Assembly (NCBI RefSeq): GCF_003790525.1
Contig: NZ_CP033635.1
From: Escherichia coli
Lineage (GTDB): Bacteria; Pseudomonadota; Gammaproteobacteria; Enterobacterales; Enterobacteriaceae
Reading direction: 5' to 3' (one strand)
Length of the DNA stretch: 64,000 nt
A model generated the notes under the pieces. It was given only the letters and a program-made list of their open reading frames with translations, was not told where the DNA came from and made no database searches. The position numbers were made by a program, and so were the translations under genes. Position 1 is the stretch's first letter, and every line of letters starts with the position of its first letter. Positions 18,492-24,292 of this stretch are shown one piece after another.

Positions 18492-19082
18492 GTGAGCTAT
18501 TACGCCTTTGAGGGGTTAATTCCGGTGGTTCACCCGACGGCGTTTGTCCATCCCAGTGCAGTCTTGATTGGCGATGTGATTGTGGGAGCCGGTGTCTACA
18601 TCGGTCCACTCGCCTCACTGCGTGGTGACTACGGGCGGTTGCTCGTGCAAGCGGGAGCCAATATTCAGGATGGCTGCATTATGCATGGCTACTGCGACAC
18701 TGACACCATCGTTGGGGAAAACGGCCATATCGGGCACGGAGCGATCCTGCATGGTTGTGTGATTGGTCGCGATGCACTGGTCGGGATGAACAGCGTGATT
18801 ATGGATGGCGCGGTCATTGGCGAAGAGAGCATTGTTGCCGCTATGAGCTTTGTCAAAGCGGGCTTTCGCGGCGAGAAACGCCAGTTGTTGATGGGTACGC
18901 CAGCCCGCGCTGTACGCAGCGTGAGTGACGACGAGTTACACTGGAAACGGTTGAATACTAAAGAGTATCAGGATCTTGTCGGGCGCTGTCATGCATCGTT
19001 ACATGAAACGCAACCACTGAGGCAAATGGAGGGAAATCGCCCCCGTTTGCAGGGGACGACGGATGTTGCGCCGAAACGGTAA
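18492..19082 (+). CDS. caiE: Carnitine operon protein CaiE (hexapeptide-repeat / gamma-carbonic-anhydrase-like)
   Basis: Conserved protein begins (V)[14 protein letters not shown]... at a GTG codon; 196 aa. Confidence 0.85.
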
Positions 19083-19084
19083 CA

Positions 19085-19175
19085 TCGTCGGATGCGGCAT
19101 AAACGCCTTATCCGACCTGGCTGGAGAGCAACCGTAGGCCGGATAAGATGCGCCAGCATCGCATCCGGCGACCAG
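19085..19175. repeat. REP/BIME-type repetitive extragenic palindromes
   Basis: cggatgcggcataaacgccttatccgacc ... gtaggccggataagatgcgccagcatcgcatccggc downstream of caiE. Confidence 0.6.
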
Positions 19176-19200
19176 GTCGCACGGTATCATCGAAATGACA

Positions 19201-19596
19201 TTAACGACGCATACTCTTTGACAACATCATCTGCCACTTCTGCTCGCGGTTAAGTTCCGTGAGCGGAACGGCAGGAATACGCGGCGTCTTTCTTACGCCG
19301 ACTAATTTTTCCCGACTGTTATTGCGCAGGCGCGCGTAAATTTGCTCATCGATATCGACCACTTTAACCAGTCGCTGACACTGGCATCCCCGCCCTTCCA
19401 GCTTATTAGGGATCATCTTAACTTCGCAGCTTATTTCTGTGACTTCCGACAGAATATAAGTCAGGGTATTAACCGCCTTGCTGTGTTCAATATCGAAATG
19501 AATAGAGATCTCTCTTGCTATCACCCACCGATTTTCAGCCATCATCCATTCGGCGATTAACAAGTAGAGTGGTTTTTCAACATATCCTTCACACAT
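19201..19596 (-). CDS. caiF: Transcriptional activator of carnitine metabolism CaiF
   Basis: Track ORF trimmed to MCEGYVEKPLYLLIAEWMMAENRWVIAREI..., 131 aa. Confidence 0.9.
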   Translation of the reverse strand: MCEGYVEKPLYLLIAEWMMAENRWVIAREISIHFDIEHSKAVNTLTYILSEVTEISCEVKMIPNKLEGRGCQCQRLVKVVDIDEQIYARLRNNSREKLVGVRKTPRIPAVPLTELNREQKWQMMLSKSMRR

Positions 19597-19856
19597 ACGA
19601 ACTCCAGTTTCACAAATTAAAAGTCTGGCTATGACTCGTTTTGAAGCAATTAAACAAGGCCATATTAAAATTGTGGATATATCGATAGTATGCAACTTCA
19701 CCGTCGATAAGTGTGAGCTAAATCCTGCTTATGTCATCAAAAATATCGATTCCCCAAAAGATTTACTTAATGGGCAAAAAAAACGGTCCTCATCAGAGAA
19801 CCGTATTAGTTATTCGATCAAATTAGCGGATGAAAAATATCCGCCATGACACGCTA

Positions 19857-22800: not shown

Positions 22801-23078
22801 TGCCCCCCCATGGTTGGCAGCACCGCGTCCGGGCGCTCTTTTTCAATAATTTTGCGTACCACTTCCCAGTGAATCGGCTCGATGTAGGTTGCATCAGCCA
22901 TTTCCGGGTCGGTCATGATGGTCGCCGGGTTGGAGTTCACCAGAATGACGCGGTAGCCCTCTTCACGCAGGGCTTTACACGCTTGCGCGCCAGAGTAGTC
23001 AAACTCACACGCCTGACCGATAACAATCGGGCCCGCACCCAGAATCAGGATACTTTTTATATCTGTACGTTTTGGCAT
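19857..23078 (-). CDS. carB: Carbamoyl-phosphate synthase large subunit
   Basis: 1073 aa [57 protein letters not shown]... duplicated ATP-grasp domains. Confidence 0.97.
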
Positions 23079-23095
23079 GGCTCTTTTACTCCTGA

Positions 23096-24244
23096 TTACT
23101 TAGCGGTTTTACGGTACTGCTCAATTAACTCGATAAAGTGGTCGAACAACGGCGCGGCGTCGTGTGGACCAGGGCTGGCTTCCGGGTGACCCTGGAAGCT
23201 GAACGCCGGTTTATCGGTGCGATGAATGCCCTGTAACGTACCGTCGAACAGGGATTTATGCGTGACACGCAGGTTTGCAGGTAATGTTGCTTCATCCACC
23301 GCAAAACCGTGGTTCTGGGCGGTGATCATCACCACGTTTTTCTCAACATCTTTAACCGGATGGTTGCCGCCGTGGTGACCAAATTTCATTTTGACAGTCT
23401 TCGCACCGCTCGCCAGCGCCAGCAGCTGATGACCGAGGCAGATGCCGAATACCGGAATATCGGTTTCGAGGAATTTCTGGATGGCGGTAATGGCGTAATC
23501 GCATGGGGCCGGGTCGCCAGGGCCGTTGGAGAGGAAGATGCCGTCTGGATTCATTTTCAACACATCTTCCGCAGAAGTTTGCGCCGGAACGATAGTCAGA
23601 CGACAGCCTCTGTCCACCAACATGCGCAGGATGTTGCGCTTGGCACCAAAATCATAAGCCACAACATGGAACGGCAGCTCGTCTTCTTTCTTCGCTTCTG
23701 GCAGGCCGCCGGTCAGCGTCCAGCTCCCTTGTGTCCAGCTATACGTTTCTGCGGTGGTCACTTCTTTTGCCAGATCCATGCCGTTCAGACCTGGGAACGC
23801 GCGGGCTTTTTCTAACGCCAGCGCCGCATCCGGGTTATCGCCCGCGATAATGCAGCCATTCTGTGCGCCTTTCTCGCGCAGTAAACGCGTCAGCTTACGG
23901 GTATCGATATCGGCAATCGCCACGATGTTATGGCGCTTCAGGTAAGAAGAGAGGTCTTCGGTATTACGGAAGTTGCTGGCAATCAGCGGCAGGTCGCGAA
24001 TCACCAGACCTTGTGCATGTACCTGAGAAGATTCTTCATCGGCGTCATTAGTGCCGACATTGCCAATATGGGGATAAGTAAGAGTAACGATTTGACGAGA
24101 ATAGGAAGGATCAGTGAGGATTTCTTGATAACCGGTCATTGAAGTATTGAAAACGACTTCCCCAACCGCCGAACCTGTTGCCCCTATGGCCCGACCGTGA
24201 AACTGGGTTCCGTCTTCCAGAACCAATAGCGCTGACTTAATCAA
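23096..24244 (-). CDS. carA: Carbamoyl-phosphate synthase small (glutaminase) subunit
   Basis: Conserved protein starts (L->M)[20 protein letters not shown] at a TTG codon (known unusual carA start); 382 aa; 17 nt upstream of carB. Confidence 0.95.
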
Positions 24245-24253
24245 AACACCCTC

Positions 24254-24292
24254 CAGAGAATATTCACTCACTTTATTTGCATATTAATTCAC
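24254..24292 (-). promoter_or_regulatory. Tandem ARG boxes (ArgR operator) overlapping carAB P2
   Basis: On the coding strand: TGTGAATTAATATGCAAA-TAA-AGTGAGTGAATATTCTCT, two 18-bp imperfect palindromes 3 bp apart matching the ARG box consensus, immediately upstream of carA. Confidence 0.5.

Follow-up and report, generated by a model that had tools for sequence, protein, structure and literature searches.

Where does translation of carA begin, and where that of caiE? The question arises in a 64,000-nucleotide stretch of Escherichia coli DNA (assembly GCF_003790525.1, contig NZ_CP033635.1; hereafter the window), for which a mechanical list of open reading frames (ORFs) opens both genes upstream of the codons at which their conserved N-termini begin. 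The part concerned is the standard E. coli caiTABCDE/caiF/carAB segment: positions 18000-24800 match E. coli SMS-3-5 (NC_010498.1) with 100% identity and are found in 5,425 of 5,426 complete E. coli genomes. Gene coordinates were taken from the annotation of the matching RefSeq record and recalculated as window positions, and the region upstream of carA is read on the minus strand, again in window coordinates (Table 1). We are confident that the best overall explanation is a UUG start for carA and a GUG start for caiE, with naive ORF calling over-extending both.

For carA, the start is marked by a codon that its relatives share. A scan of one genome per species yielded 80 loci from Enterobacterales and Vibrionaceae, E. 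coli included, and in all 79 that cover the 5′ end the codon aligned to CarA residue 1 is TTG. A Shine-Dalgarno sequence, GGAGG, precedes it at constant spacing, 5 nt upstream, with a single exception (locus L075, GGGGG). The conserved N-terminus begins at this TTG and no in-frame alternative is conserved; in 21 of the 80 loci there is no in-frame ATG, GTG or TTG upstream before a stop is reached, and the first internal ATG is codon 36, past the highly conserved N-terminus. Within the species, 5408 of 5422 E. coli genomes share the same 40-mer centred on the TTG, and it matches a K-12-like record at 29631-29670. The CarA chains in the PDB (E. coli, deposited structure sequences) start with MIKSALL, and in the literature TTG is given as the initiation codon of carA, with two ARG boxes located at promoter P2 (PMC6245113). 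Three distant metagenomic carA genes (49-64% identity) begin with ATG, ATG and GTG, so TTG is a feature of the clade and not universal. The UUG at 24244-24242 would be read by the initiator tRNA as formylmethionine, probably served by the strong Shine-Dalgarno ahead of it.

In caiE, what is conserved is the start position, and the codon found there differs between genera, being ATG, GTG or TTG. Of the carA loci, just three have caiE nearby (Citrobacter werkmanii, C. youngae and a Pseudocitrobacter); each has ATG at the codon orthologous to 18492, and SYYAFEG or SIYAFEG comes next. They differ from E. coli in carrying a repetitive extragenic palindrome (REP)-like element inserted after caiD and before caiE, and an in-frame stop lies upstream of the ATG, at 6 codons in C. 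youngae and at 24 codons, at the caiD stop, in the Pseudocitrobacter. Five further lineages read ATG (Proteus mirabilis, Plesiomonas and an Aeromonas-like contig), GTG (Yokenella) or TTG (one metagenomic contig) at the start position, so that GTG is found in E. coli and Yokenella, in contrast to ATG in most other genera sampled. The caiD-caiE junction of Plesiomonas is as compact as that of E. coli (…GGAAAGGACGCTAAGTCACC-ATG), with an in-frame stop 2 codons upstream, and Yokenella has no in-frame start upstream at all. A protein search with the extended ORF of 203 residues returned thousands of homologues, none of which aligns over the 7-residue extension (query coverage at most 97%). The motif M-x-x-Y-x-F-E-G stands at the start of 114 of the 120 best CaiE cluster representatives, and residue 1 of 8gpm_A, the closest solved homologue, corresponds to the E. 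coli GTG codon. As in carA, the conserved N-terminus begins at the proposed start codon and no in-frame alternative is conserved; in E. coli itself, 5347 of 5392 genomes have the same 42-mer at the caiD-caiE junction. Translation of caiE thus probably starts at GUG 18492, 5 nt past the caiD stop. A single Shine-Dalgarno-like sequence (AAGGA) precedes the GTG, at 11 nt, a distance that does not clearly fit Shine-Dalgarno spacing, and initiation therefore probably occurs by termination-reinitiation coupling with caiD.

Might the ORF list be right after all? It opens the carA frame at GTG 24271-24269, which would give a protein of 391 residues with nine extra ones (MSEYSLEGV) ahead of LIKS. This GTG is the first start codon past the in-frame stop, and a GTG, ATG or TTG lies in frame 9 codons upstream in 45 of the 80 relatives. 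Its conservation, however, is explained by its membership in ARG box 2; 21 of the 80 loci are devoid of any upstream in-frame start, and in Rahnella and Rouxiella 1-nt indels break the frame. Moreover, the distance between box 2 and the TTG ranges from 8 to 13 nt among the loci; the frame is therefore not kept and the upstream extension is not coding. With no Shine-Dalgarno before it and a position only ~6 nt from the 5′ end of the P2 transcript, the GTG would not act as a start, and literature, PDB sequences and RefSeq alike use the TTG. We consider translation from GTG 24271 extremely unlikely. The corresponding reading for caiE, namely a start at GTG 18471 that overlaps the last caiD codons and yields 203 residues, is unlikely as well. 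It too would use the first start past a stop, and the Shine-Dalgarno available to a start at 18492 is weak and distant (11 nt); the original cai operon annotation presumably has the same length of 203 residues. Against it stand the absence of the 7 extra residues from every homologue found, the ATG that relatives have at the position of 18492, the upstream sequences of Plesiomonas and Yokenella, the RefSeq start at 18492, and the solved CaiE homologues, which start at the equivalent residue.

A compromise would be that both in-frame starts are used in each gene, giving two N-terminal proteoforms of CarA and of CaiE. Dual starts are reported to be common in E. coli N-terminomics, where 14.6% of the unique start-site coordinates are alternative in-frame sites (PMC13245402), but neither upstream extension is conserved, and the supplements searched held no gene-specific dual-start data for carA or caiE; we regard this as very unlikely. 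Three points weigh against the UUG and GUG starts and the arrangement described around them. No N-terminal peptide or initiation-profiling entry for carA or caiE was found in N-terminomics and riboproteogenomics supplements. Both candidate starts of E. coli caiE are GTG codons lacking a well-spaced Shine-Dalgarno, and the choice between them is made by conservation and annotation only. Finally, the start of P2, which enters the argument for carA, is a position calculated from distances quoted in reviews and not from primary data.

Why, then, do the ORF calls begin too early? Naive calling takes the first ATG, GTG or TTG past a stop codon, a rule that over-extends carA and caiE. The same happens to genes with ordinary starts: the naive ORF of caiD begins 36 codons early and that of caiF 35 codons early, and both true starts are ATG. 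The extensions are therefore due to the rule of the first start after a stop and not specifically to non-ATG initiation. Among the 46 annotated coding sequences (CDSs) in window positions ~1-49,900, 40 start with ATG, 4 with GTG (nhaA, caiE, a ccdA-like gene and one hypothetical) and 2 with TTG (rpsT and carA). An earlier note on this DNA, made from the letters and the ORF list, had put the conserved N-terminus of CarA at the TTG with the ORF entered through an upstream GTG, and that of CaiE, (M)SYYAFEGL, at a GTG, and had seen in these known or expected features the reason for the naive N-terminal extensions. Both placements hold, with RefSeq and homologue starts in agreement, and annotation, literature and comparative sequence are concordant on the explanation.

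What lies directly upstream of the carA TTG is the operator of the arginine repressor ArgR. On the minus strand the order is TGTGAATTAATATGCAAA-TAA-AGTGAGTGAATATTCTCT-GGAGGGTGTT-TTG, that is, two 18-bp imperfect palindromes separated by the 3-bp spacing of an ArgR operator, 21 bp centre to centre, with GGAGGG filling the gap from ARG box 2 to the TTG. The pair spans -49 to -11 from the T of the TTG, which bears out the earlier note's placement of two ARG boxes within 10-50 nt of the start; the segment considered there ended at 24292, one base inside ARG box 1. Taken singly, ARG boxes at up to 3 mismatches are not unusual in the 64 kb (15 seen against 7.6 expected, about twice chance), whereas the tandem arrangement (3-bp spacer, no more than 4 mismatches over both boxes) is seen once in the window and was absent from all 200 simulated 64-kb sequences (first-order Markov). 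In most relatives the two boxes show mismatch patterns of (1,3) or (1,4). The carA TTG, the ArgR operator and the caiE GTG are already known or annotated features, and ordinary ones.

According to published carAB reviews, P1 transcription starts 100 nt upstream of the TTG and 67 nt separate the start of P1 from that of P2. The P1 start thus placed, G 24344, lies 7 nt beyond the end of a promoter found by scanning, TTGACT-17-CAGAAT. For P2, which a simple promoter scan did not report, ARG box 1 covers both the candidate -10 (TTAATA) and the inferred start at 24277. From there, transcription would begin ~33 nt upstream of the UUG, and since such a leader consists almost entirely of operator (the two boxes) and Shine-Dalgarno, the boxes abut the start codon. 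One arginine-bound ArgR hexamer is described to occupy two 18-bp ARG boxes 3 bp apart at P2, excluding RNA polymerase (PMC6245113); by this step, taken from the literature, ArgR together with arginine would bind both boxes here and shut the polymerase out of P2. The same source reports arginine-dependent binding and repression by ArgR for exactly this sequence.

Rfam gave two small RNA (sRNA) matches between dapB and carA. The ES003 sRNA family (RF02750, 87 bits) matches 53 nt at 24344-24292 on the minus strand, with its 5′ end exactly at the P1 transcription start and its 3′ end at the first bases of ARG box 1, and could represent a short P1-derived transcript or a fragment of the 5′ untranslated region (UTR). 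DapZ (RF02551), a Salmonella 3′-UTR sRNA family, matches 24616-24693 (minus strand) over the dapB terminator region and 3′ UTR, with 29 bits against a threshold of 56. The same scan found no cis-regulatory family in this region, and the beta-proteobacterial 'carA motif', a riboswitch candidate (PMC8632094), is unrelated to it.

Downstream of the start, RNAalifold predicts a small conserved hairpin in carA codons 7-13, which may be a side observation of some novelty. In 46 sequences, 96.9% of the cells are paired, compared with at most 56% in slid controls, and compensatory changes occur in 3 pairs, each of them synonymous and at a third position (for example GTT/GGA to GTC/GGG and CTG/GAC to CTA/GAT). 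None of 500 shuffles reached these values of pairing and covariation. All 7 pairs are retained in 61 of the 80 loci, and local folds in E. coli, Vibrio and Proteus have energies between -8.8 and -10.8 kcal/mol (z between about -2.1 and -2.5). The covariation mostly splits Vibrionaceae from Enterobacterales and hence reflects few independent events; Proteus has one of the changes independently. A further pairing proposed by RNAalifold, of the Shine-Dalgarno and UUG with codons 40-43 (CAAGAAAUCCUC), is present in the E. coli centroid fold and was rejected, having no compensatory changes and not exceeding shuffles. As a whole, the 178-nt carA leader has no folding advantage over shuffled sequence (z = -0.16).

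Synonymous variation is also reduced around the start. Across 65 Enterobacterales sequences, E. coli included, the normalised third-position entropy of carA is 0.26-0.56 in codons 1-75 as compared to 0.61-0.84 elsewhere in the gene; the lowest 15-codon windows of carB have 0.38 (its first window) and 0.46. This stretch (~24020-24244, minus strand) is clearly less diverse at synonymous sites than the rest of carA or than carB, and several of its non-preferred codons are near-invariant (TAT39, CAA40, GAA41, TAT57 and CAT59).

By our own estimate, the hairpin lies just past the stretch of mRNA expected under an initiating 30S subunit. A stem-loop early in the coding sequence that activates translation (translation-activating stem-loop, TASL) has been reported for fepA (Jagodnik et al. 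2017, cited in PMC11979758). Like the fepA element in that account, the carA hairpin sits in the early coding sequence. The carA hairpin is conserved and has compensatory changes; its membership among TASLs is only a lead. By analogy, the hairpin could be a TASL-like element by which the 30S subunit is placed on the weak UUG. Another possibility is that a post-transcriptional regulator targets it. That the invariant UUG, the hairpin and the reduced synonymous variation of about the first 75 codons together form a conserved translation-tuning module is a tentative and rather doubtful proposition, suggested by the sequence comparisons.

Table 1. Features of the cai-car segment and further non-ATG starts, in window coordinates
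Feature	Position	Strand	Basis
caiD CDS	17701-18486	+	RefSeq annotation
In-frame upstream GTG opening the naive caiE ORF; 7-codon extension MERTLTT, inside the caiD 3′ end	18471-18473	+	ORF list
caiD end: weak, distant Shine-Dalgarno-like GGAAAGGA (18473-18480); stop TAA (18484-18486)	18473-18486	+	sequence
caiE CDS, 196 aa, GTG start 18492-18494	18492-19082	+	RefSeq annotation
caiF CDS	19201-19596	-	RefSeq annotation
carB CDS	19857-23078	-	RefSeq annotation
carA CDS, 382 aa, TTG start 24244-24242	23096-24244	-	RefSeq annotation
Conserved hairpin GGUUCUG-GAAGA-CGGAACC, carA codons 7-13, +21 to +39 from TTG	24206-24224	-	RNAalifold
carA Shine-Dalgarno GGAGGG, 4 nt 5′ of TTG	24249-24254	-	sequence; GGAGG kept in relatives
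ARG box 2 AGTGAGTGAATATTCTCT, 3 mismatches to consensus WNTGAATWWWWATTCANW	24255-24272	-	consensus match
In-frame upstream GTG opening the naive carA ORF, within ARG box 2	24269-24271	-	ORF list, sequence
ARG box 1 TGTGAATTAATATGCAAA, 1 mismatch to consensus WNTGAATWWWWATTCANW	24276-24293	-	consensus match
carP2: candidate -35 TTGATT (24310-24305), candidate -10 TTAATA (24287-24282), start ~24277	24277-24310	-	literature distances; hexamers by eye
carP1: -35 TTGACT (24379-24374), -10 CAGAAT (24356-24351), start G 24344 (GTTTGCC)	24344-24379	-	promoter scan and literature distance
dapB CDS	24700-25521	-	RefSeq annotation
Hypothetical gene, annotated GTG start	~2792		
ccdA-like gene, annotated GTG start	~3495		
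rpsT, annotated TTG start	~32780		
nhaA, annotated GTG start	~39092		

How does the segment compare with known systems? The carA control region is laid out as in E. coli K-12, with tandem P1 and P2, an ArgR operator with 3-bp spacing, a UUG start and the same distances; there is no detectable difference, this being one and the same locus, seen in a strain of the SMS-3-5 type. Likewise, the cai genes follow E. coli caiTABCDE in their order caiC-caiD-caiE, with convergent caiF and the same annotated caiE start. The CaiE protein, a hexapeptide-repeat protein, resembles gamma-carbonic anhydrases, and its closest solved homologues, 8gpm and 8gpp, are named carbonic anhydrases. Within the window, carA shares its TTG/UUG start with rpsT. 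In rpsT the UUG is tied to S20 autoregulation; carA, by contrast, has no described translational regulation.

Other features of the window stand apart from these starts. REP-like palindromic repeats (…GCCGGATAAG…CATCCGGC…) occupy 19083-19200, between the convergent caiE and caiF, and are related to the elements found after caiD in Citrobacter and Pseudocitrobacter. Above the Rfam thresholds are a sok antitoxin RNA by mokC/hokC (43454-43606, plus strand), tpke11 upstream of dnaK (44991-45068, minus strand) and the thr operon leader (58733-58852, minus strand). In NC_010498.1, the RefSeq locus tags RS00165, RS00170 and RS00185 are skipped in the dapB-carA and carB-caiF intergenic regions; features once called there appear to have since been dropped or not to be CDSs.

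For annotation, the lesson is that rules of the 'longest ORF' or 'first start codon' kind over-extend genes and that comparative alignment corrects the start. For decades the carA UUG and its ArgR operator have been in the textbooks, so that their confirmation brings nothing new. Of modest novelty are two points: Enterobacterales and Vibrionaceae do not depart from UUG in carA, whereas in caiE the start codon moves freely among ATG, GTG and TTG, and a small hairpin with compensatory synonymous substitutions lies just 3′ of the carA start. The invariant UUG with its conserved downstream hairpin might be the only element worth a possible experiment. Control of carAB is mainly transcriptional according to a review of the operon. 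If the hairpin does affect initiation, carAB would gain a previously undescribed element of translational control or tuning; whether TASL-like or the target of a regulator, it would then add an extra layer to an operon considered to be controlled almost wholly at the level of transcription.

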